From: a virus
Lineage: Duplodnaviria; Heunggongvirae; Uroviricota; Caudoviricetes
Length of the DNA: 30,023 nucleotides
Virus record (IMG/VR): IMGVR_UViG_2690316318_000018
Span: 1-30,023 of that record
Strand: one strand, 5' to 3'
Positions 2,925-30,023 of this stretch are shown here, one piece after another; the stretch's first letter is position 1; every line of letters starts with the position of its first letter. Made by a program: the position numbers and the translations under genes. Under the pieces are notes generated by a model. It was not told where the DNA came from. It did no database searches and saw only the letters and a list, made by a program, of their open reading frames with translations.

Positions 2925-4549
2925 TATGCAGCCCTCACAATATAGTTAAATGCAATATTCCTTGGTCGAACCCTAAAACCAGCCCCTGCGCCTGCTCCAG
3001 TTGGTGGCAATTCGATAGAGGGGTATGCTGTTGCAGGGGAATATAAACCTTCACGGGAATCATAATCAGTCGTCATATAGTTAGACGTATTATCAGAAAC
3101 AGTTTCTGTCGGTCTGGTAACCAGACGATAAGAGCCAGTGGTTGGTGACCTGACCAGACCAAAACTTTCAACCAGAGTAGCTTTTTGAAAGCTTAATAAT
3201 CCCCGACCACTGTCAGCTCCGCGCCCATCATCCCAGCCACGAATAAACTCACCGCGTAAATCAGGCAGTTTATTTGTCGGATAAGCCTTTGCCAGTTTAG
3301 GATATTCAACGGCAGAAAATGCCGCACCGTTGCATTTCAGCCAGCCTGTTGGCGGAGTGGCGGAAGGCCACGGAACAGGCACACCCGCGGGTAATGCCGA
3401 ACCTTCTCCCAAACCAAGGTAATCAAGAACTCCCTGAGTGCTGGTTTTACCAAGAATGGCACGTCCAACACTTGTCAACGCGGTTAACGCGGCACGATCT
3501 GCCCCTGTAAAATATGGGAGTTTATCTGCTGATGTAGCAAGCTCCGCCAGCGCCGTCAGGGTGGCATCCTTCGGTTGCTTACCCGCAAGCGCGTTAGTCA
3601 TGGTGGTCGCAAAATTCGGGTCATTGCCCAGCGCCGCAGCCAGTTCGTTCAGCGTGTTCAGTGCATCAGGTGACGAATCTACAAGTGCGGCAATCGCGGC
3701 CATAACGAAAGCCGTGCTTGCGATCTGGGTACTATTAGTCCCCTGTGGCGCTGTTGGTGTTGTTGGCGTTCCGGTCAGTGCCGGGCTGTTTAATGGTGCT
3801 TTCTTGTTCGTTTCATCCATTACCGCCTTAACAGCTTTTGGTGTCGCTGCCAGCGTTTCAGACGTGCTGTTCGTGGCGCTACTGAGCTGAACAATCCCTT
3901 TTTGTGTAGTGGTGGCGTTCTGGGCGGTATATTTCCCGTTAGCCAGGTCATATGCAGCCTTAACCGCTTTCGGTGTTGCGGCCAGTGTTTCTGATTCACT
4001 GTTAATTGCACTGCTTAACTGAGTAAAACCTTTTACGGTCAGCGAGGCGTCCGGGTGACGTCGTGATTGTTCGTGCTCTGATATTTTATCATCCACATAT
4101 TTGCGGGTTGCCAGAACCACAGACGGGTCGATTTTCAGCGTGATGGCTTCGGTGTTCGTGACAACCAGAATCATGCGGATAGTCTGTGTGCGTCCACTGC
4201 CTTCCTGCAACTGCGGTTTGTACGTTTCCGGGCAGTTTGCCACCGCAATGAGTACACCTTCATCATCATAAAGACCAATCTCACGGATCCAGAATCCTCC
4301 CTCGTTTTCAGGGATGATTTGCTCCGCAATAATCTGGCTCTGATTGTTAGGGTCAACACTCAGAAGATTCAGCGGTGCAATGCGTTTCTGGTTAATCAGT
4401 TTTGTTTGTGCAGGGTCTGGTGTTGGTAACACACCATTTGCATCACCAACGGCCATTTGCGTCAGATTCAGCTTACTGCCGAGCATCGTCGCGTTAGCCA
4501 GTCGTGCTGCGCCCTGATTAGTCAGAATGGCGTAGTATTTCACTGTCAT
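2924..4549 (-). CDS. H: Tail fibre protein H (full length, C-terminal variant 1)
   Basis: 541-aa ORF at the P2 gene H position, downstream of I. Thr/Ala/Ser-rich central region with repeated …TQLSSA.NSESETLAATPKAVKA… motifs typical of myovirus tail fibres. Confidence 0.85.
   Translation of the reverse strand: MTVKYYAILTNQGAARLANATMLGSKLNLTQMAVGDANGVLPTPDPAQTKLINQKRIAPLNLLSVDPNNQSQIIAEQIIPENEGGFWIREIGLYDDEGVLIAVANCPETYKPQLQEGSGRTQTIRMILVVTNTEAITLKIDPSVVLATRKYVDDKISEHEQSRRHPDASLTVKGFTQLSSAINSESETLAATPKAVKAAYDLANGKYTAQNATTTQKGIVQLSSATNSTSETLAATPKAVKAVMDETNKKAPLNSPALTGTPTTPTAPQGTNSTQIASTAFVMAAIAALVDSSPDALNTLNELAAALGNDPNFATTMTNALAGKQPKDATLTALAELATSADKLPYFTGADRAALTALTSVGRAILGKTSTQGVLDYLGLGEGSALPAGVPVPWPSATPPTGWLKCNGAAFSAVEYPKLAKAYPTNKLPDLRGEFIRGWDDGRGADSGRGLLSFQKATLVESFGLVRSPTTGSYRLVTRPTETVSDNTSNYMTTDYDSREGLYSPATAYPSIELPPTGAGAGAGFRVRPRNIAFNYIVRAA
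3403..4438. repeat. Direct repeat copy B (1036 bp) of the tail-fibre H constant region
   Basis: See copy A; same orientation, offset 2005 bp. Confidence 0.85.
3404..3429. other. Putative Hin/Gin/Cin-family crossover site, second identical copy in direct orientation
   Basis: Same 26-bp sequence as 1399..1424, at the constant/variable junction of full-length H. Confidence 0.6.
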
Positions 4550-7607: not shown

Positions 7608-8067
7608 CGCTTTCCCCCCACGTCACATCCTGGAATACATGCGACCAGTCGCCTTCGGAGGATGGCAGGCGGGGTTTTGGCTCCGGAAGGTGTTCTGCCT
7701 GCGGTGTGCCCTGACTGCTGCGCGTGATGCGAACACGTTCCCGCAGGGGAAGCGTAAACAGGAGATCGGCGCTGTCATCGTCATTGATAACGGCGGAGAA
7801 TTTGATGTCCTGATTACGCTCCGGATTGAGCAACAACTGTGGCTGATTTTCGGATAACCACGCCAGTAACGGCAGCGTGAGGTCGTCCAGCTCTCCGGCG
7901 TAATCCATGACAAACATCACCATCTGATAGCGGTAAACAAACGAGGGCGTTTCTCCGGTCGTTTCAATGTTGCCGCTCTCCACGAAAATGGTGAATTTTT
8001 CCGGGTTAGCCTGACACCATCGGCATGAACGGGTCATGGCTTCACGCAGGGAATCAGTTTTCAGCAT
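7600..8067 (-). CDS. R: Tail completion protein R
   Basis: 155-aa ORF after the lysis genes and before S; size and position match P2 gpR. Confidence 0.75.
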   Translation of the reverse strand: MLKTDSLREAMTRSCRWCQANPEKFTIFVESGNIETTGETPSFVYRYQMVMFVMDYAGELDDLTLPLLAWLSENQPQLLLNPERNQDIKFSAVINDDDSADLLFTLPLRERVRITRSSQGTPQAEHLPEPKPRLPSSEGDWSHVFQDVTWGESDG

Positions 8068-8374
8068 GGTTGTTATCCTCGTTGTTCAGTCGTTGCAGCC
8101 TGCGCTGTTCCAGTAATTCAATGGCCCGTTTATCCGCGTTACAGGTTTCAAGTGCATCCAGAAGGCGATCGCCCCATATACCGAGATTTCCCCATGTGGG
8201 AGTATCAGGGAAGGGGGGAGGCATTACCGGTATGGTCAGCGTCTGCGGTATAAGCCGGACTGACGGCGCTGGCCGTGGCGCGTTCTGCGTGCCTGCGCAA
8301 CCTGTCAGTAAAACGAGCGTCAGGCAAAGCGTGGGCGCATTCATCTTTTGCAATATCGTTGCGTAGCTGTTCAC
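8054..8374 (-). CDS. lysC: Outer-membrane lipoprotein spanin (LysC/Rz1-like), overlapping the 3' end of the i-spanin gene in another frame
   Basis: 106-aa ORF with signal peptide plus lipobox (…LTLVLLTGCAG…), proline-rich, embedded in and extending beyond the LysB ORF as in P2 lysB/lysC. The true start may be the internal Met (MNAPTL…). Confidence 0.7.
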   Translation of the reverse strand: MNSYATILQKMNAPTLCLTLVLLTGCAGTQNAPRPAPSVRLIPQTLTIPVMPPPFPDTPTWGNLGIWGDRLLDALETCNADKRAIELLEQRRLQRLNNEDNNHAEN

Positions 8375-8612
8375 GTCTGGCCTCTCCGTCCTGATTGCGT
8401 TGCTGATTTTCCACGCGGAGTTGCGCCAGCACCTGCTGCATATCCTGTACCCCGGCGCTGATGATATTCAGTGTGTCGACGGTACTTTTCAGGGTGCTGG
8501 CCTGTACTTCGTTTCTGGCGTTCTCCCGGCCAAGCGACCATGACAGACGCATGGATGTTTCCCATGCGGCAATCAGAAGAAAAGCGATGCCCAGAGAAGT
8601 CCATAACTTCAT
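8205..8612 (-). CDS. lysB: Inner-membrane spanin (LysB/Rz-like)
   Basis: 135-aa ORF with N-terminal TM segment (MKLWTSLGIAFLLIAAW) followed by a charged coiled-coil-like region; sits directly after the endolysin. Confidence 0.7.
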   Translation of the reverse strand: MKLWTSLGIAFLLIAAWETSMRLSWSLGRENARNEVQASTLKSTVDTLNIISAGVQDMQQVLAQLRVENQQRNQDGEARREQLRNDIAKDECAHALPDARFTDRLRRHAERATASAVSPAYTADADHTGNASPLP

Positions 8613-9154
8613 GCCGCTACGCGTTCCTTTATCCAGCCGTAGACAAACGACTCGTTGGCTTCGCGTTTTTCCGCCAGCTCCAGATAGCGTTCACCTTGTG
8701 TACAGTTCAGTGCTGCTAACATCACCATCTCGCCGTCCCGACCGCGTTTGTCCAGATATGCACGCAATGCGTTAATCGTGCGTGGGCCAGTGCGTCCGTC
8801 CGTGTCCATATCGGGATACAGTTTCCCGCCCTGATTGAATGCGTTCAGCCAGCGCTGCAGCATTCTGGTTGCCACAGACGGCCCCATATTTACTCCGGTG
8901 TCACACAGTTCTGCGGCAATATCCGGGGACAGCTTCGCTATCTGATCAAAACGCGGTCCGTACCAGTAATCAGCTTCAAGGATTTCCAGTGCCTGTCCGC
9001 GCGTTAAATCACGCATATCGCCACGGTATCCGTGCGCCCGTGCCACCTTTTCAGTGATGCCCCATTTTGTCGGGCCGCCTTTGTCATCCGGGTGATTGAC
9101 GTAGCCGCCTTCTTTGCCCAGAACGGCATCAAAAATTTCGTCTTTCGATTTCAT
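8609..9154 (-). CDS. Endolysin, GH108-type N-terminal domain with predicted C-terminal peptidoglycan-binding domain
   Basis: 181-aa ORF. N-terminal motif …LGKEGGYVNHPDDKGGPTKWGIT… is characteristic of GH108 (YbcS-like) phage muramidases. Located between holin and spanins. Not a P2 gpK (lambda R-type) lysozyme. Confidence 0.7.
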   Translation of the reverse strand: MKSKDEIFDAVLGKEGGYVNHPDDKGGPTKWGITEKVARAHGYRGDMRDLTRGQALEILEADYWYGPRFDQIAKLSPDIAAELCDTGVNMGPSVATRMLQRWLNAFNQGGKLYPDMDTDGRTGPRTINALRAYLDKRGRDGEMVMLAALNCTQGERYLELAEKREANESFVYGWIKERVAA

Positions 9155-9208
9155 TTCGCCACCTCTGTGAATGATTTTTATGGTGATTACCAGCTTTAAG
9201 CCTGAGAC

Positions 9209-9532
9209 TTATTCATCTCCCTTTTGGGTTATGCGGTTAAAGGCGGCAATGATCTTGTCGCGTGCTTTTTCTGCGCCCATAAAACCGATAGATGCGCCGA
9301 AAAACGTCACGGCATCTTCAGGAACTCCGAAGAAGCGCAACGACCCGGCCACGGCCATGGCAAGAACGCCGCACGCCAGCGATCCCGTTACGGTCTGAAC
9401 CAGCGTTCGTCCGTCATAAAGACTCATCAGCGCGGAAATGCTGACCGCCGCGCCTACTGCATACACCGTTGGCAGATGGTCAAAGAGCCACGCAATAACC
9501 TGCTCTGAGATCCCTGTTTGAATGGTGCTCAC
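9209..9532 (-). CDS. Holin (class II-like, two TM segments)
   Basis: The track ORF 9209..9751 is overextended across gene X. A GTG at 9532 preceded by GGGGGAG gives a 107-aa product (VSTIQTGISEQVIAWLFDHLPTVYAVGAAVSISALMSL…) with two hydrophobic segments and a charged C-terminus. Its start lies 3 nt after the X stop. Confidence 0.65.
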   Translation of the reverse strand: MSTIQTGISEQVIAWLFDHLPTVYAVGAAVSISALMSLYDGRTLVQTVTGSLACGVLAMAVAGSLRFFGVPEDAVTFFGASIGFMGAEKARDKIIAAFNRITQKGDE

Positions 9533-9534
9533 TG

Positions 9535-9735
9535 CTACTCCCCCCACAACTGAATCATTTCTCGTTTCTTCTTCTCTGGCTCCGGCATCTCCACTTCCTG
9601 CCCGGCGTCCAGAAATACCTGCTGACAGAGTCCGGGGTTGGCATCCAGCACCTTTTCGGTGACGCCCTGCGTCATGCCGTAGTACCGGAAACAGAGCGAA
9701 TCCACGGTGTCGCCTTCCAGTGCCTTCACTTTCAT
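9535..9735 (-). CDS. X: Tail protein X (LysM-like)
   Basis: Internal start MKVKALEGDTVDSLCFRYYGMTQGVTEKVLDANPGL… gives a 66-aa product matching the P2 gpX pattern (…GDTLD..C.RYYG.T.GVVE.VL.ANPGL…). Confidence 0.8.
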   Translation of the reverse strand: MKVKALEGDTVDSLCFRYYGMTQGVTEKVLDANPGLCQQVFLDAGQEVEMPEPEKKKREMIQLWGE

Positions 9736-10238
9736 CAGCACAACTCCGCAAAGATTCGCGGGCGGCACAGAATGTCAGAGATGGCCCAGCTCACATCGCG
9801 CCACAAATCCGATGTCTGTATATCCAGTGCGTCCGCCCGGCGGTCGCCCTTGTCCGTTGTGTCCGCATCGCGGTAACGCTCCAGAATCAGGGCGCGTGTG
9901 GCGGTATAAACAGCATTGCGCCAGTGCCAGAGATTGACGCTTTCTCCGTTAATTACGGGTGCCGGAACATCGGCCAGCGTCTGATGGCCAGCCGCCTGCT
10001 GTTCCTGCTGCCATGCTTCCAGCTCGCGGGTAACGTGAGCCACGGCCCCGGTGGCAGTATGCAGCAGGCGGGAGGTGGTCACGCGGCCCGGCAGTCGTAC
10101 CGCCAGACGCAGCTCGCGCAGCACAATATCCGGCCAGAATGCACCTGCTGAAATGCGAGTGTCGCCATCATCGGTATCGGTTATGTCGTCCTCTGCGGGT
10201 CCGGGGTTGGTTCTGGCAACCATACTCATGGGGTTCAC
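9735..10238 (-). CDS. L: Head completion/stabilisation protein L
   Basis: 167-aa ORF between M and X; size and position match P2 gpL. Confidence 0.8.
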   Translation of the reverse strand: MNPMSMVARTNPGPAEDDITDTDDGDTRISAGAFWPDIVLRELRLAVRLPGRVTTSRLLHTATGAVAHVTRELEAWQQEQQAAGHQTLADVPAPVINGESVNLWHWRNAVYTATRALILERYRDADTTDKGDRRADALDIQTSDLWRDVSWAISDILCRPRIFAELC

Positions 10239-16544: not shown

Positions 16545-18749
16545 TTACGTGTCGAGAGAAATTTGTGTGCGCAGTTGAATAGGATTCAGAATTGTATATC
16601 GCTGGCGAATAACATTATATAAATCAAAGTCTTTTACCCTTACGCTTATTACCATCGCATATTGCATATCAGGGGCTGAAACTCCCTTAACATGGCGCGA
16701 AGAATCTCGGGCATGATACCGTATATCAAAAACTGGATCGCTTAATAATGTATCAGCACTGAACTTTTTGCTTCTGTGCAAACAAGTTTCCCACTTATGA
16801 CCTTCACTCCTACACTCCCTTTCAGTCTTATACTGGCTTTTTTGACCAAAGAAATCATCTGTATCGGTATCGTCAAGGCCGAATCTTGGGCGGAAAGTTA
16901 CCTGCATACCGGCCCTTGTATAGTTTACTGAATGTTCAGGATCTACTGGGGTTTGAATGCATAAAGTAGCGGTAAGCTCAAATGCTTCGTCAAAGGGAAC
17001 ATCAGGGAATGGGATCGGTGCCCTTAAATATTTATTTTTTGCTAATGAACCATAGTAAATTACTGTAGCAGTATCATTTGGACAATCGATTAAAACGTTA
17101 GGATCCTCACTAAACCGTCCCCAACCGATATGTTCACGCGAATATTTTCTTGATGTTTCAGCATGATGAACAAGCAACGCTTTCAATGCAATGGTGTTCA
17201 ATGGAGTTCCTGATAGAGCCGCAACTCCAGCGGCCGTTCTCAATGCTAATGGAGAGGCATAACTGGTTCCTTGAACTCCAACTATAGAACCAAGCAGAGG
17301 GTTGTAAGTGTAAAAAGGCTCGTCGTCGCTTCCACCAAAAATAACACCATCAGGTTTAACGAATCCGGGGCTTCTGCCTGGCCCAATACAGCTATATGGT
17401 GCCCGCCCCCATTTTTCACCGCTACGATCAGCAGCACCAATCGCTAGCGCGTTTACCATATCGGAAGGAGGTTGTATTCTCGCTGCATCACCGTCCTCAT
17501 TGCCATCATTCCCAACAGCAACAGTAAGTAATATCCCATGCTTAGCACAGATTTGGTCTAAAACAGCAGTCCATACATGAACCTCATCATCACCAATTGG
17601 AAGATGAGGACCAATACTTAGATTAGCGAACTTATAGTCACCACTATCAAGAACGGACTGTATTTTCTTAAGGACATCAAATAAATCCCAATTGCCATTG
17701 TCACCTGATGTCGGTGAAAGAACTCTATAATGATCTACATTCATAAACGGTCTTTTAAAAGAAGGTGCATTTTCCTCGACACGTCCGAATAAGAAAGTGG
17801 ATGTCACTTCATTACCGTGCTGCAATAATAATCCGCTTGTTTCTTTGGTGTCTGGATACACGTATTCCGTAACCCAATTACTCAAGTCAGCTGTCCCCAA
17901 GCCACCATCAAAAATGGCAATACGTTCGGATTCAAGAACAGCTTTAGAATTAGGGAGCTCCGGTGTAACTATATTAGATAACTTTCTGACAATGTTCGGC
18001 TGAGTACACCTGAGAGACGGCATCGGCCGCACAACGCGGATTAATGAAAAATCGAGTGTTTTTTTCATATCTTCAGGTCGCGCGTGTGCAACGATGAAAG
18101 TCAGCCCACCAACTTGGATTCTACTTTTGTAATCAACAGAGACATCATATTGTGCCGCATAGCTAATATAGGCTTTAACGATATCATCGTCTTCAACCCC
18201 AGCATGAAGAACCACTTCAAATTTTATCAAATCACTTTTCGCATGCTCAAAATTGCGTGCTCTCTCTTTTCCTTCAAAAAAGCTAACACTTTCAATTTCG
18301 ATCAAATCCTTTTGTACGCCCTTCGGAGCTGTAGGGGAATTTAAAATTTCCTTAAATCTTATAACGGCATCATCATCACCGCTAACAAACAGTTGCGCCG
18401 TTACTAAGTCCTTATTCTGATCGCACTGACGTGCCGCTTTCCGTGGGCGAATGATTACCTGACGGCTGCCGACATCCCGTAAACCTGTCGCTCTAAGCAA
18501 TCCTTCCGGAAAGTAGCTTTTACCCAAAAACGCTGGGTGTAAAGTTAAATTGAATACACTCTCCCCCCTTGGCTTAGCCGCATCATCCAAACTGCGAAAG
18601 CGTGAGAGTAAAGTATCAATCTCTGGGTTTAAATGCTCCCTTACTTCTTCAAGAGTATAGGGATAGCGCTTACCATCCCTTCCTTTAGGCAAAGGTTCCT
18701 TTTTTGTCAGAACATGACCGTTACCTAAAAGTAAGTTCCTTTCCATCAT
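16545..18749 (-). CDS. Subtilisin-like serine protease (peptidase S8 family) with ~270-aa N-terminal and ~230-aa C-terminal domains of unknown function
   Basis: 734-aa ORF. S8 catalytic motifs in canonical D-H-N-S order: …RIAIFDGGLG… (Asp ~281), …LLQHGNEVTS… (His ~311), …VAVGNDGNE… (oxyanion Asn ~414), …GVQGTSYASP… (Ser ~496). Start overlaps the upstream ATPase stop (ATGA). AT-rich codon usage. Confidence 0.85.
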   Translation of the reverse strand: MMERNLLLGNGHVLTKKEPLPKGRDGKRYPYTLEEVREHLNPEIDTLLSRFRSLDDAAKPRGESVFNLTLHPAFLGKSYFPEGLLRATGLRDVGSRQVIIRPRKAARQCDQNKDLVTAQLFVSGDDDAVIRFKEILNSPTAPKGVQKDLIEIESVSFFEGKERARNFEHAKSDLIKFEVVLHAGVEDDDIVKAYISYAAQYDVSVDYKSRIQVGGLTFIVAHARPEDMKKTLDFSLIRVVRPMPSLRCTQPNIVRKLSNIVTPELPNSKAVLESERIAIFDGGLGTADLSNWVTEYVYPDTKETSGLLLQHGNEVTSTFLFGRVEENAPSFKRPFMNVDHYRVLSPTSGDNGNWDLFDVLKKIQSVLDSGDYKFANLSIGPHLPIGDDEVHVWTAVLDQICAKHGILLTVAVGNDGNEDGDAARIQPPSDMVNALAIGAADRSGEKWGRAPYSCIGPGRSPGFVKPDGVIFGGSDDEPFYTYNPLLGSIVGVQGTSYASPLALRTAAGVAALSGTPLNTIALKALLVHHAETSRKYSREHIGWGRFSEDPNVLIDCPNDTATVIYYGSLAKNKYLRAPIPFPDVPFDEAFELTATLCIQTPVDPEHSVNYTRAGMQVTFRPRFGLDDTDTDDFFGQKSQYKTERECRSEGHKWETCLHRSKKFSADTLLSDPVFDIRYHARDSSRHVKGVSAPDMQYAMVISVRVKDFDLYNVIRQRYTILNPIQLRTQISLDT

Positions 18750-19828
18750 TTAATCCCCCACTTTTGTAATTTATTCGCGATTGTTGGATGTGAAACACCA
18801 ACTAATTCAGCTATCTTCCTATTTGAAAAACCGTCAAAATGATATTTAATTATATTGAGATCATTATCGCTAAACTCATCCAATGAAACCCTCTCCGTAA
18901 TTACGGCTTCTATTAATGAGCTTTCAAATGGAATATTTCTAAGTACCTCATTCTTTTTGGAGAAATTCAAAATACGGTTAATGATGGCAAAGGACATGCC
19001 ATCTAATAATGGTGCAAGTTTTTTAGATAGTTCAGGTTCAATATTATGATTGACTAAATATCTATCTATCAGTTCTACTGATGGCATATTAAATTTAAGG
19101 ATGTGCTCAAATCGACGCCAAACAGCCGGATCTAAGATATCAGGGTGATTAGTCGCAGCAACAAGAAGCGAGGTCGCTGGCCACTCATCTATGGTCTGTA
19201 GGAGTACAGTAACTAAACGTTTTAATTCTCCAACGTCCCTGTCATCATCACGTCTTTTTGCAACAGCATCAAATTCATCAAGCAAAAGGACACATGGTTT
19301 CTCTTTGGCATAATCCATAACGGATTTAATATTATTACCTGTTTTTCCCAAAAGAGAACTCATTACAGATGAGAGATCCAATGTTAAAAGAGGTAAATTT
19401 AACTTTGCAGCAAGCCAATGTGCGGACATTGTTTTGCCTACGCCTGGCGGGCCAGAAAGTAAAACCGTCTTCACAGGTTCAAGACCAGCTTTGAACAAAG
19501 AAACCGCATTCTCTCTTTCGTTAACAATTGACTCCAGCTTCTTTGAGATATCCGTATTCCATACAGGTTCTTCAACAATTGCGTTGACAGATGTTTCCTG
19601 CAAAAGGTTTCGTCTGGAGTCTCCATCCACAGGCATAGGAGCCTTACTAGATGCCCCACGTAATACTGTTCCCTCAGCAACTAACGAAGCCAGCTTAGAA
19701 GCTAAAGCCTCATCATTTTTACGGATGTTGTTAATCATCTTTCTGCATAGGAGTGTAAATGCATTTGCGTTGCCTTTGATGCCTTGCTCGATGAGTTTGA
19801 AAAGTTCATCCTCCCTCACGTTTACCAT
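18746..19828 (-). CDS. Classic-clade AAA ATPase with predicted C-terminal helix-turn-helix
   Basis: 360-aa ORF. Walker A LSGPPGVGKT (~126-133), Walker B VLLLDEFD (~180-187), second region of homology …LLVAATNHPDILDPAVWRRFEH… (sensor-1 Asn, Arg fingers). C-terminal segment …SNRKIAELVGVSHPTIANKLQKWG… resembles a LuxR / sigma-70 region-4 type HTH. Confidence 0.85.
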   Translation of the reverse strand: MVNVREDELFKLIEQGIKGNANAFTLLCRKMINNIRKNDEALASKLASLVAEGTVLRGASSKAPMPVDGDSRRNLLQETSVNAIVEEPVWNTDISKKLESIVNERENAVSLFKAGLEPVKTVLLSGPPGVGKTMSAHWLAAKLNLPLLTLDLSSVMSSLLGKTGNNIKSVMDYAKEKPCVLLLDEFDAVAKRRDDDRDVGELKRLVTVLLQTIDEWPATSLLVAATNHPDILDPAVWRRFEHILKFNMPSVELIDRYLVNHNIEPELSKKLAPLLDGMSFAIINRILNFSKKNEVLRNIPFESSLIEAVITERVSLDEFSDNDLNIIKYHFDGFSNRKIAELVGVSHPTIANKLQKWGIK

Positions 19829-27643: not shown

Positions 27644-27955
27644 ATGTCAAGTGGGTACGAAAAAAAACTGAAAGAGATACGGAAAAGTGAAGGGTTAACT
27701 CAAGCTGAGTTTGCAGATGTTACTGGGATAAATCTCGGAACTATAAAGAATTATGAGAGCGGTAAAAGAGAGGTTGGTTTAAGCGTTGTTGATCGCGTAA
27801 TTAATTCTAAGGATTTCGAAAAATACACTATATGGCTTATGACGGGAAAAACAAATGAGGCTGCTGGGCAGATCAGTCCCTCTCTCTCCCCTGATGGGCC
27901 AGAAAACACATCGTCTTCTCAAAAATCCCGCAAGACTGGTACACAGCCCGGCTAA
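27644..27955 (+). CDS. C: Immunity repressor C (P2 C-type HTH repressor)
   Basis: 103-aa ORF. …RKSEGLTQAEFADVTGINLGTIKNYESGKR…KYTIWLMTGKT…GQISPSL… parallels P2 C (…RKSEYLSRQQLADLTGVPYGTLSYYESGRS…KYTLWFMTNQ…GQIAPAL…) as recalled. Confidence 0.85.
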   Translation: MSSGYEKKLKEIRKSEGLTQAEFADVTGINLGTIKNYESGKREVGLSVVDRVINSKDFEKYTIWLMTGKTNEAAGQISPSLSPDGPENTSSSQKSRKTGTQPG

Positions 27956-28004: not shown

Positions 28005-28982
28005 ATGAGCATAAAATCAATTCCGGGAGGGTATCTTCTTGACATGCGCCCGGAGGGGCGTAAAGGCAAACGCATTCGTAAAAAATTTAAAACGAAATCG
28101 GATGCAGTTTTATATGAGCGGTGGGTGCTGGCGCAACAGCATAACAATGAGTGGAAAGGAAACTCTATTGATCGCCGTCCTCTGTCAGTGCTTATTGACT
28201 TGTGGTGGAAATACCACGGCCAGCTAATGAAGTCAGGGCATAACACGCGCCTTAAATTGCTGCGCTTGAGTGAGGCAATGGATGACCCGTGCGTGCATAA
28301 ACTTAATACAACGATGCTCACCGAGCTACGTGTGTCCAGGATAGAGCAGGGGATACAGCCCAGCACCATAAATCGAGAGATTGGGGCGTTAAGCGCGATG
28401 TTTACCGCACTCATCTCATCCGGCCATTTTCTTAACGATAACCCCGTTCAAGGCCTTAAAGGAATGAAGGTTAACGAGCGCGAAATGGGATACCTGAGTA
28501 AGTCTGAATGTGTTCAGTTGCTGGATGCACTGGCTGAAAATCCCGATGAACGGCTGGCTGTCGAAATCCTTCTGTCGACCGGGGCGCGATGGGGCGAGGT
28601 AGCGGCACTGGAGCAGCGCCGTGTTCTTCATTGTCGAATCACTTTTTCAAAAACGAAGAACAGTAAAAACCGCACTGTCCCGATCTCCGAAAATCTGTTT
28701 GAAAAGATCAAAAAACGGGGCGGGAAACTAGTGTTTCCAACGCTGGATTATCCATTGGTTCGCGATGTCATCAAAACGGTCGCACCTGATGTTCCTGACG
28801 GCCAGGCTGTTCATGCGCTGCGCCACACCTTCGCCAGTCATTTCATGATGAACGGCGGTAATATTCTGACGCTCCAGAAAATTCTGGGGCACGCAAAGAT
28901 TCAGACAACGATGATTTATGCCCATCTTGCGCCGGATTACCTGCAGGATGCGGTGAGGTTTAATCCCTTGGGAGGAATGTAA
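28005..28982 (+). CDS. int: Tyrosine integrase (P2 Int family)
   Basis: The track ORF is overextended; ATG at 28005 gives 325 aa. C-terminal catalytic motifs …HALRHTFASHF… and …LGHAKIQTTMIYAHL… (R…HxxR…Y). Confidence 0.9.
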   Translation: MSIKSIPGGYLLDMRPEGRKGKRIRKKFKTKSDAVLYERWVLAQQHNNEWKGNSIDRRPLSVLIDLWWKYHGQLMKSGHNTRLKLLRLSEAMDDPCVHKLNTTMLTELRVSRIEQGIQPSTINREIGALSAMFTALISSGHFLNDNPVQGLKGMKVNEREMGYLSKSECVQLLDALAENPDERLAVEILLSTGARWGEVAALEQRRVLHCRITFSKTKNSKNRTVPISENLFEKIKKRGGKLVFPTLDYPLVRDVIKTVAPDVPDGQAVHALRHTFASHFMMNGGNILTLQKILGHAKIQTTMIYAHLAPDYLQDAVRFNPLGGM

Positions 28983-28984
28983 CT

Positions 28985-29485
28985 ATGGAAATAAAAAAAC
29001 CTACAAAAAAAGAGTTATATGACTATTTACTATCGAAATATATAGAAGATAAATGCAAAGAAGAAGCTGATGAAATCAATAAGAAGTCGATGAGTCGTGT
29101 CAATAAACATAAGGAGCGGCTGATGGAGATTACGCCAGAAATCTTCTTCCGTTTCTTGTCTGAGAAGGAGGTTTCCAGTGTCTGCCCTTCATGTGGATCG
29201 TCTCGATTATCTGTGCCTGAAAGTATGGATCTTTGCTGGGATAAAAATAAGAAACCAGAAAATTTTAACAATCTACCCTTGGAGGAGCAGAGTGAGTTAA
29301 TTAAAGAGAACATAAAGCATTATGTATCTTATACTTTTTTGGGTGATGTTAAGAGCATACCTGATATGCGCAAAACTTATTACACGCTGCATTGCCTGAA
29401 TTGTGGTTACCTGAGCCTTTACCGTACGTCTGCGGTGCTGAAGTGGTTGGAGAAAGACAAAGCACAGGATGGTGAAAATGGGTAA
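28985..29485 (+). CDS. Hypothetical Lys-rich protein with two Cys pairs (possible zinc ribbon), AT-rich cargo
   Basis: 166-aa ORF starting 3 nt after the int stop; CPSCGS … CLNCGY; strongly AT-rich codon usage unlike the phage backbone. Confidence 0.55.
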   Translation: MEIKKPTKKELYDYLLSKYIEDKCKEEADEINKKSMSRVNKHKERLMEITPEIFFRFLSEKEVSSVCPSCGSSRLSVPESMDLCWDKNKKPENFNNLPLEEQSELIKENIKHYVSYTFLGDVKSIPDMRKTYYTLHCLNCGYLSLYRTSAVLKWLEKDKAQDGENG

Positions 29486-30023
29486 TGTAGCAAGAAACCT
29501 GTTCGGTAATTCAGCAGGTAGTATGTCGCATTCTGAGCGTGATGTGCTTTATCATGGCGGCGATGGCGGCAGTAGTGGAGGTGGAATGTCAGATAAACTT
29601 GAAAGGCGAATTGAGCGACTCGAAAGTGATTTATCGCTAACAAGAAACGACCTTGCGACGCTTGCTGAACGCACTACAAACCTCTCAACCAAAGCCGATG
29701 TTGGTGAGGTGAAGGGTGAGCTCAAAGCAGACATTGCTCATCTGAAAGGTGAGCTTGAATGCGATATTGCGAATCTGAAAGGTGAGCTTAAATCTGATAC
29801 AGCTAATCTGAAAGAGCAGCTCAAATCAGACATTAACAGCCTGAAGGGTGAGCTTACCGAAGCGATGGATAAACGCTTTGACAAGATTATGGATGAGATG
29901 AATCGGCGGTTTGACAAGGTTGATGATAATACGAAGTGGCGTTGGAGTGGCATTATTGTGCCAGTGTGCACAACCATTTTCACGGCGGCGGTCGCGTATT
30001 TTGTTGCTAAATTTGTTGGCTGA
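29469..30023 (+). CDS. Hypothetical tail-anchored coiled-coil membrane protein with five tandem 11-residue repeats
   Basis: 184-aa ORF overlapping the upstream ORF by 17 nt. Gly/Ser-rich linker, then repeats …VGEVKGELKAD / IAHLKGELECD / IANLKGELKSD / TANLKEQLKSD / INSLKGELTEA…, then a single C-terminal TM helix (WSGIIVPVCTTIFTAAVAYFVAKFV). Ends at the window edge. Confidence 0.55.
   Translation: MVKMGNVARNLFGNSAGSMSHSERDVLYHGGDGGSSGGGMSDKLERRIERLESDLSLTRNDLATLAERTTNLSTKADVGEVKGELKADIAHLKGELECDIANLKGELKSDTANLKEQLKSDINSLKGELTEAMDKRFDKIMDEMNRRFDKVDDNTKWRWSGIIVPVCTTIFTAAVAYFVAKFVG

Follow-up and report, generated by a model that had tools for sequence, protein, structure and literature searches.

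What kind of protein is encoded at the far end of a P2-like prophage, behind its integrase gene, and what could it do there? The question was raised by IMG/VR virus record IMGVR_UViG_2690316318_000018, of which the whole stretch of 30,023 nucleotides was analysed (positions 1 to 30,023, hereafter the window). As a whole, the window represents a P2-like (Peduovirus) prophage; alignment to phages such as P88 covered about 65% of it, at 95–97% identity. The window closes with an open reading frame (ORF) of 184 aa on the plus strand (29469..30023), whose sequence agreed with the earlier transcription. The first-pass annotation had seen in this ORF five tandem 11-residue repeats, followed by a helical segment and one C-terminal transmembrane (TM) helix, and had suggested, as speculation, a membrane-disrupting effector, with XhlA-like haemolysins as an example of such proteins. 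From sequence comparison, we find good support for a small inner-membrane protein that is anchored by its tail and belongs to the DUF1640/CCDC90-like class; it is organized as head, neck, stalk and anchor, and its head is non-canonical. Taken as a whole, our reading is that of a hendecad stalk protein of this class, which is paired with a Zn-ribbon protein and belongs to an accessory module of the lysogenic operon; we hold it with moderate confidence.

The repeats were recognized by several measures. Tandem Repeats Finder detected a 33-nt array at 29710–29834, with 3.8 copies and 74% matches. In the protein, residues 73–140 had 27 identities at lag 11, compared with 4.6 ± 2.0 and a maximum of 14 in shuffled sequences (n = 20,000), and the signal was repeated at lags 22 and 33. 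The hydrophobicity spectrum of residues 77–158 peaked at 3.68 residues per turn (power 96, versus 2.3 at 3.50). Five LKGEL-type units of 33 nt each start at residue 78 and occupy 29700..29864 on the plus strand (VGEVKGELKAD, IAHLKGELECD, IANLKGELKSD, TANLKEQLKSD and INSLKGELTEA). Compared pairwise, they were identical in 15–28 of 33 nt. The five tandem repeats of the first-pass annotation were thus borne out. The segment placed behind them is helical, as had been said, but it is not free of repeats: it consists of two further hendecads of an RFDK type, MDKRFDKIMDE and MNRRFDKVDDN (29865..29930, plus strand; 22/33 nt identical), which keep the register of the LKGEL units. The periodic stalk therefore has seven units in all, spanning residues 78–154. 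Some homologues lacked one of the two RFDK-type units. Among 108 distinct homologue units, V, I, L, M or F stood at unit positions 1, 4 and 8 in 79%, 72% and 82% of cases, respectively, and elsewhere in at most 22%. As judged from the residues, this 1-4-8 hydrophobic stripe is the pattern of a hendecad (11/3) coiled coil. As to the stalk, AlphaFold2 gave an unbroken helix of low confidence at residues 37–146.

Immediately 5' of the first hendecad lies the neck (29682..29699, plus strand; residues 72–77), with the motif L-S-T-K-A-D. A beta-layer with the motif [aliphatic]-A-T-K-[polar]-[DE] has been placed in DUF1640 proteins “at the beginning of the C-terminal stalk” (PMC4786415). LSTKAD fits this published motif, but with S standing for A. 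Its T, K and D were invariant in our alignment of the tail-anchored homologues (A4), and so were the W and P of the anchor region.

The region ahead of the neck is made of a 32-residue helix, a Gly-rich linker and a peptide predicted to be disordered. The short head helix, MSDKLERRIERLESDLSLTRNDLATLAERTTN, begins with an internal start codon, Met40 (29586..29681, plus strand); it has a hydrophobic period of ~3.56, contains invariant A4 columns, and its first residue is the start used in RefSeq. The linker HGGDGGSSGGG is found at 29553..29585 on the plus strand. The N-terminal extension of the long form (MGNVARNLF...SERDVLY; 29478..29552, plus strand) starts within the stop codon region of the upstream Zn-ribbon gene, overlapping it (ATGGGTAA), and had values below 50 in the predicted local distance difference test (pLDDT) of AlphaFold2, so that disorder is predicted.

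At the other end of the protein, the anchor SGIIVPVCTTIFTAAVAYFVAK (29946..30011, plus strand) is followed by ~3–4 residues and by the stop codon at 30021–30023. The TM assignment rests on hydropathy only, with a Kyte-Doolittle 19-residue mean of 2.14 at residues 162–180; AlphaFold2 modelled a helix at residues 153–180 of the 181-aa form. The single C-terminal TM helix noticed earlier is in agreement with both, and the proposed check for a coiled coil together with a TM helix gave both elements, in the form of the 3.68-residue periodicity and the C-terminal hydropathy peak. Because the protein has no signal peptide, a charged N-terminal part of ~160 residues and only 3–4 residues after the TM helix, the head and the stalk should be cytoplasmic.

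The comparison of copy numbers among homologues, which the first-pass annotation had also suggested, gave a clear pattern. The number of LKGEL-type units ranged from 1 to 7, and it varied even among alleles otherwise 90–99% identical. The lengths of the homologues stepped by 11 residues, being 112, 123, 134, 145 and 156 aa when counted from the short start, and 148, 159, 170, 181 and 192 aa when counted from the long start. In the E. coli-type lineage, the distance between the T of the TK.D motif and the membrane-proximal W was 39, 50, 61, 72, 83 or 94 residues, all of them 6 modulo 11. In the Salmonella-type lineage there was a 4-residue insertion, and the distance from neck to anchor was always 10 modulo 11. 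Within the aligned sequences, the array grows and shrinks by whole hendecads only. The fixed neck–anchor length modulo 11 suggests that the stalk is a stiff rod whose register is held constant from neck to anchor. The length of the stalk is set by the number of units, at ~1.6 nm per unit (11 residues with a rise of 1.5 Å), and at 1.5 Å per residue it would span about 6 to 16 nm across the homologues.

The ORF has three candidate starts: ATG 29469, ATG 29478 and the internal ATG 29586. The homologues keep ATG 29478, which gives a form of 181 aa, and the RefSeq start for close copies is the internal ATG, which gives 145 aa. The other allelic group has a GTG start directly 3' of the upstream stop. 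The 36-codon extension was open in every variant and had in-frame indels. Its ratio of non-synonymous to synonymous substitution rates (dN/dS) was 0.14–0.55, and its synonymous divergence was several-fold above that of the rest of the gene. The internal Met was invariant among the variants. In 12/12 distinct variants it was preceded, at 4–7 nt, by GGAGG (GGAGA in the Klebsiella copy); in the window this GGAGG lies in the codons of the linker, at 29577–29581, 4 nt before the ATG. The GGAGG is formed by Gly codons and persists where the amino acids differ, including in variants with <40% protein identity. The coding-like extension, the invariant internal Met and the conserved GGAGG together suggest an internal translation start, and hence two in-frame products of 181 and 145 aa.

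To which family does the protein belong? The name DUF1640/CCDC90 is already in the public annotation, with RefSeq labelling copies of 97–99% identity as “DUF1640 domain-containing protein” or “CCDC90 family protein”. The best specific Pfam match was PF07798 (CCDC90-like), at E 3.4e-5 and 24.2 bits, which is below the Pfam cut-off of 33.5 bits; the match covered profile positions 68–171 of 175, corresponding to the stalk and the anchor. Among the homologues recovered by phmmer, P0052 passed the cut-off with 46.1 bits, and P0024 (33.1 bits) and P0050 (32.2 bits) fell just short. Membership in PF07798 is thus transitive and not direct, because a homologue passes and the protein's own score is below the threshold. 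The best match of the family profile in the PDB was 6h9l_A (E 0.013), with an alignment that opens at the ATK.D motif and continues through 11-residue repeats. A direct search of the PDB with the tail-anchored protein returned only matches with E ≥ 0.09, all of them coiled-coil noise.

When 1.84 billion representative proteins were searched with the profile, 1882 clusters matched at E ≤ 1e-3. Within the top 144 matches, a C-terminal TM helix and lag-11 repeats were each found in 112, and [AS]TK.[DE] in 89. We take homologues P0113, P0116, P0119 and P0124 to bear the usual DUF1640 head. The subgroup without this head includes the tail-anchored protein, P0098, P0099, P0102–P0105, P0108 and others, and its N-terminus has a variable peptide, then a linker rich in Gly, then a short “LE(R/K)RVExLE” helix. 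NCBIfam had no specific family for either the tail-anchored gene or its Zn-ribbon neighbour.

Few relatives were found in phages. A nucleotide search of phage records with the gene pair returned one Klebsiella record only, and a protein search added the DUF1640 genes of two Liberibacter phages, SC1 and SC2. Scans of viral sequences and genomes with alignment A4 gave close relatives only. In the Liberibacter phages SC1, SC2 (L004 3917–4294) and FP2, the DUF1640 gene is located directly 3' of a DNA primase gene; it had 44% identity over residues 69–163, and no Zn-ribbon partner was annotated. In the literature searched, we found no paper giving a function to any bacterial or phage DUF1640 member. 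Two other identities were considered and rejected. An Rz-type i-spanin has an N-terminal TM helix, a coiled coil in the periplasm and an o-spanin lipoprotein gene embedded in its own gene or next to it; the TM helix here is C-terminal, and the spanin pair of the prophage is encoded elsewhere, in the lysis cassette (8205–8612 and 8054–8374, minus strand). For a virion structural protein there was no such homology, and the gene is outside the late operons.

The neighbour of the tail-anchored gene encodes a 166-aa Zn-ribbon protein (ZnR; 28985..29485, plus strand) and starts 2 nt after the integrase stop codon. The only match of ZnR was phrog_4293, of unknown function (E 1.2e-21). Four of its Cys are invariant (C67, C70, C137 and C140), arranged as two CxxCG motifs, and an “ITPExFFxFL” motif is conserved as well. 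The AlphaFold2 model (pLDDT 86) had a long N-terminal helix, a small beta domain with the Cys pairs, and a C-terminal helix. Homologues of ZnR were found only in Enterobacterales, and the alleles were 21–62% identical.

The two genes travelled together. At 31/31 ZnR loci (~20 distinct pairs), from Escherichia, Salmonella, Klebsiella and Providencia, the next ORF overlapped or abutted the ZnR stop codon and encoded a coiled coil with a C-terminal TM helix. These partners had 100 to 195 aa. Those of Providencia and of the enterotoxigenic E. coli (ETEC) type had a tether, a short coil and an anchor, without the hendecad array. The type of N-terminal extension switched together with the ZnR allele, with a recombination junction at the Gly-rich linker. 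Such co-variation fits an interaction of the two proteins, though mere linkage could explain it too. The distant stand-alone bacterial homologues of the tail-anchored protein had ordinary chromosomal neighbours and no Zn-ribbon partner.

The pair closes the lysogenic operon of the prophage. The first gene of this rightward operon is the C repressor (27644..27955, plus strand), a C/CI-type helix-turn-helix protein (HTH_3, E 2e-10; phrog_147 transcriptional regulator, E 1.3e-35), also seen in RefSeq at 98%-identical loci. It is followed by a tyrosine integrase (28005..28982, plus strand; Int_N, E 2.9e-28; Phage_integrase, E 3.1e-20; phrog_1, E 1.1e-72), whose start was taken from the RefSeq copies, the ORF being open from 27855. 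Near-identical loci in complete genomes adjoin btuC. The order C, int, ZnR, tail-anchored gene, btuC was the same in E. coli and Salmonella, and the Klebsiella phage record had it up to the tail-anchored gene. We found no terminator-like site between int and the pair. The only one was 3' of the pair and beyond the window end, a strong terminator-like hairpin (GGCCGCTCTGCGGCC and a T run; L001 8534–8548), which separates the tail-anchored gene from btuC and is all that stands between the end of the prophage and the btuCED operon. In a P2/186-like Salmonella prophage, low transcription of the repressor and the integrase was seen in every condition tested (PMC7067206), and expression of the pair in lysogens is therefore plausible.

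How constant is this arrangement? The integrase is present, mostly at 95–99% identity, in about 299 of 5426 complete E. coli genomes. Cargo types downstream of int were counted by separate searches among the same 5426 genomes, with positions confirmed for part of them only. The pair was found with a type-1 Zn-ribbon in 23 genomes and with a type-2 Zn-ribbon in 16, a third pair type (L022) in 86, a fourth (L023) in 19, and an unrelated 131-aa gene in 158. The last of these is the commonest alternative cargo (L021 3191–3586; E. coli O104:H4 C227-11 and 157 other complete genomes), and neither Pfam nor PADLOC matched its protein. What lies from int to the attachment site in btuC-adjacent P2-like prophages is thus variable cargo. 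Roughly half of the btuC-integrated P2-like E. coli prophages carry the pair, in at least four diverged allelic types.

From these observations we propose the following working model. The long form would be translationally coupled to the ZnR stop codon, and the 145-aa form would be made from the internal ATG with its GGAGG. Transcription of both genes in lysogens is probably low, by analogy with the Salmonella prophage. The hendecads would form a nearly untwisted coiled-coil stalk, which, by analogy with solved relatives, is probably parallel and trimeric. The stalk would hold the head and the tethered peptide, most likely together with the Zn-ribbon partner, at a fixed distance under the inner membrane. 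As for the benefit to the prophage, a role in lysogenic conversion, for example the exclusion of superinfecting phages or defence against them, seems to us the most likely one, and we put it forward tentatively.

Several results weigh against this account. The tail-anchored protein scored below the PF07798 cut-off, the canonical DUF1640 head (profile positions 1–67) was unmatched, and many of the protein's matches were generic coiled-coil noise. The AlphaFold2 monomer was one long helix of low confidence (pLDDT 59.8), without a beta-layer, which is missing because the model is a monomer. The fold search with the ZnR model gave no informative neighbour. The conserved GGAGG could reflect mere common ancestry of the Gly codons. 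The exclusion or defence role is drawn only from gene position, operon structure and allelic diversity. In PADLOC (PADLOC-DB 2.0), no defence family matched either gene or its allelic variants; the matches to the tail-anchored protein were coiled-coil noise in its helical region (LmuB, ZorA and similar; E ≥ 1.6e-5), and therefore no known defence family can be claimed.

A pure membrane scaffold, or a lysogenic-conversion factor without any part in phage conflict, survives best among the alternatives. Here the stalk would organize or regulate a host inner-membrane complex, as MCUR1/CCDC90B do in mitochondria. The link to the DUF1640/CCDC90 family speaks for it, because the eukaryotic members studied are described as scaffolds (PMC7519068; bioRxiv 10.1101/2025.10.14.682030), and not as pore formers. 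The distant bacterial homologues, standing among ordinary chromosomal genes without a Zn-ribbon partner, are in line with it as well. Both genes of the pair, however, are strongly diversified beside an integrase conserved at 95–99%, a pattern more typical of conflict genes, and no host partner is known. The canonical head is also absent here. In the head-neck-stalk-anchor proteins reportedly described by Adlakha in 2019, this head is said to bind the partners of MCUR1. Taken on its own, the pure scaffold is rather doubtful, and it is nearly as likely as exclusion or defence.

A lysis accessory of the XhlA or holin kind, along the lines raised by the first-pass annotation, would have its coiled coil oligomerize in the inner membrane and help to disrupt it in the lytic cycle. 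The overall layout, with a cytoplasmic coil and a C-terminal TM helix, fits. There were weak matches to XhlA (PF10779, E 0.3), to a phrog_689 holin (E 0.0047) and to a phrog_1193 hemolysin (E 0.022), and the short ETEC-type counterpart from L023 (99 aa) matched XhlA at E 0.0024 and 18.5 bits. These scores are far under the XhlA cut-off of 34.7 bits (11.7 bits for the protein in the window) and stand amid dozens of coiled-coil noise matches. Gene context gave no support either. XhlA genes in PBSX adjoin the holin and endolysin genes. The gene in the window belongs to the C–int operon, at the attachment-site end and outside the lysis cassette, and the prophage already owns a holin, an endolysin and both spanins (~8054–9750, minus strand), ~20 kb away. 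Genes placed 3' of the repressor and integrase should be active in lysogens, which fits poorly with a constitutively lytic protein. Neither homology nor gene context gives the membrane-disrupting effector significant support, and we consider it improbable.

Equally unlikely is an amphipathic 11/3 helix that lies on the membrane surface and coats or bends it, of the apolipoprotein, alpha-synuclein or late embryogenesis abundant (LEA) type. The 11-residue periodicity is common to that class, the best Pfam E-value of the tail-anchored protein was that of Apolipoprotein A1/A4/E (2.8e-6), and the PDB sequence matches included apolipoprotein A-IV (E 0.1–0.3). The Apolipoprotein match (PF01442), however, had 27.6 bits versus a cut-off of 90. 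The units are hydrophobic at 3/11 positions only, in the narrow stripe typical of a coiled-coil core, and have no proline punctuation. The beta-layer motif and the profile match to 6h9l indicate a bundle, and the strict modulo-11 length between neck and anchor suggests a rigid rod. The weakest alternative, a decaying or neutral cargo whose array is slippage-prone DNA without selected function, could explain the differing copy number between nearly identical alleles and the truncated or frameshifted copies P0039 and P0040, but is barely credible in view of a core dN/dS of 0.19–0.32, length changes that always preserve frame and hendecad register, and a pair kept in Escherichia, Salmonella, Klebsiella and Providencia at 21–62% ZnR identity with motifs intact.

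We thus return to the hendecad stalk protein with its Zn-ribbon partner. In a more specific version, which is speculative and on balance doubtful, the two would form an unrecognized two-gene exclusion or abortive-infection module, in which ZnR and the co-varying tether provide specificity, the hendecads tune the reach, and the ratio of the 181-aa and 145-aa forms provides control. To our knowledge, four features have no description in the literature searched: that a Zn-ribbon gene always accompanies the tail-anchored gene, that the head departs from the canonical one and bears a tether, that there is probably a dual start, and that the int–att junction of P2-like prophages is allelically diverse. 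Bacterial DUF1640 proteins make up thousands of clusters, and the prophage subgroup offers a tractable handle on them, having a fixed gene partner, a defined position in the lysogenic operon, natural 11-residue steps in stalk length and a possible dual start. If the exclusion or defence role is true, a small and common cargo module is added to the hotspot repertoire of P2-like phages, and the bacterial branch of the MCUR1/CCDC90 family gains its first functional clue. If it is false, the protein is an ordinary member of a named family.

Other parts of the window were noted as well. The classical P2 cargo hotspot, flanked by the genes for the portal and for replication (16545–19828, minus strand), was occupied by the anti-phage system IetA/IetS, composed of a 359-aa AAA ATPase (IetA; PADLOC E 3.6e-89) and a 733-aa subtilase (IetS; PADLOC E 6.6e-41; Peptidase_S8, E 4e-17). 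This 4-kb stretch was missing from the otherwise 97%-identical prophage of TW10590. In the lysis cassette, the endolysin (8609–9154, minus strand) differed from that of the TW10590 prophage, which has an M15 metallopeptidase. Similarity between the two broke at 8616–9232, and it looks as if the lysis enzyme was swapped within a conserved cassette. The tail-fibre region had a 490-nt inverted repeat (1–490 and 2435–2924, 95% complementary) and a direct repeat of at least 300 nt (1398–1697 and 3403–3702, 100% identical), and two long tail-fibre ORFs (462 and 541 aa) had a segment in common. Because a recombinase gene is found close to the tail-fibre genes in the related prophage, these repeats may be an invertible or duplicated host-range cassette.

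Compared with known systems, the tail-anchored protein is closest to the DUF1640/CCDC90-like proteins (PF07798; human MCUR1 and CCDC90B, yeast Put6/Put7). Common to both are the C-terminal TM anchor, a coiled-coil stalk that opens with the [aliphatic]-[A/S]-T-K-x-[D/E] beta-layer, and an N-terminal part on the cytoplasmic (matrix) side, the last being predicted from sequence for our protein. Where those proteins have the DUF1640 head (“...KLxxAGFxxxQA...” in P0113, P0116 and P0119), ours has a variable N-terminal peptide, a tether rich in Gly and a short coil. Unlike those proteins, it is prophage-borne, always 3' of a Zn-ribbon gene, and probably has two in-frame starts. The archaeal protein of the Kcr-0859 type (PDB 6H9L, “Uncharacterized protein”) likewise has an ATK.D motif followed by tandem 11-residue units (ATKEDIEALRK...). 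It differs in its head and in its repeat consensus, the match was marginal (E 0.013), and ATK.D recurs in every unit of 6H9L, whereas it occurs only once in the prophage protein.

XhlA of the PBSX lysis cassette (PF10779) is, as here, a small phage protein whose N-terminal coil is followed by a TM helix at the C-terminus. It has no hendecad array and no significant similarity to the prophage protein, whose gene adjoins the integrase region instead. The 11/22-mers of apolipoproteins A-I, A-IV and E (PF01442) have the 11-residue periodicity in common with our protein, which unlike them has a membrane anchor, a narrow stripe and no Pro punctuation. The lysogenic operons of P2-like phages hold accessory exclusion genes, such as glo of Vibrio phage K139, and the known exclusion and defence proteins have no sequence relation to the prophage pair. 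As in the cargo hotspots of P2-like phages (Rousset 2022; bioRxiv 10.1101/2024.10.15.618418), the cargo described here is variable and is found near CI and int; on the circular phage map, we take the cargo interval near those genes to cover the one described here. The classical hotspot of the same prophage also bears the known defence system IetAS.

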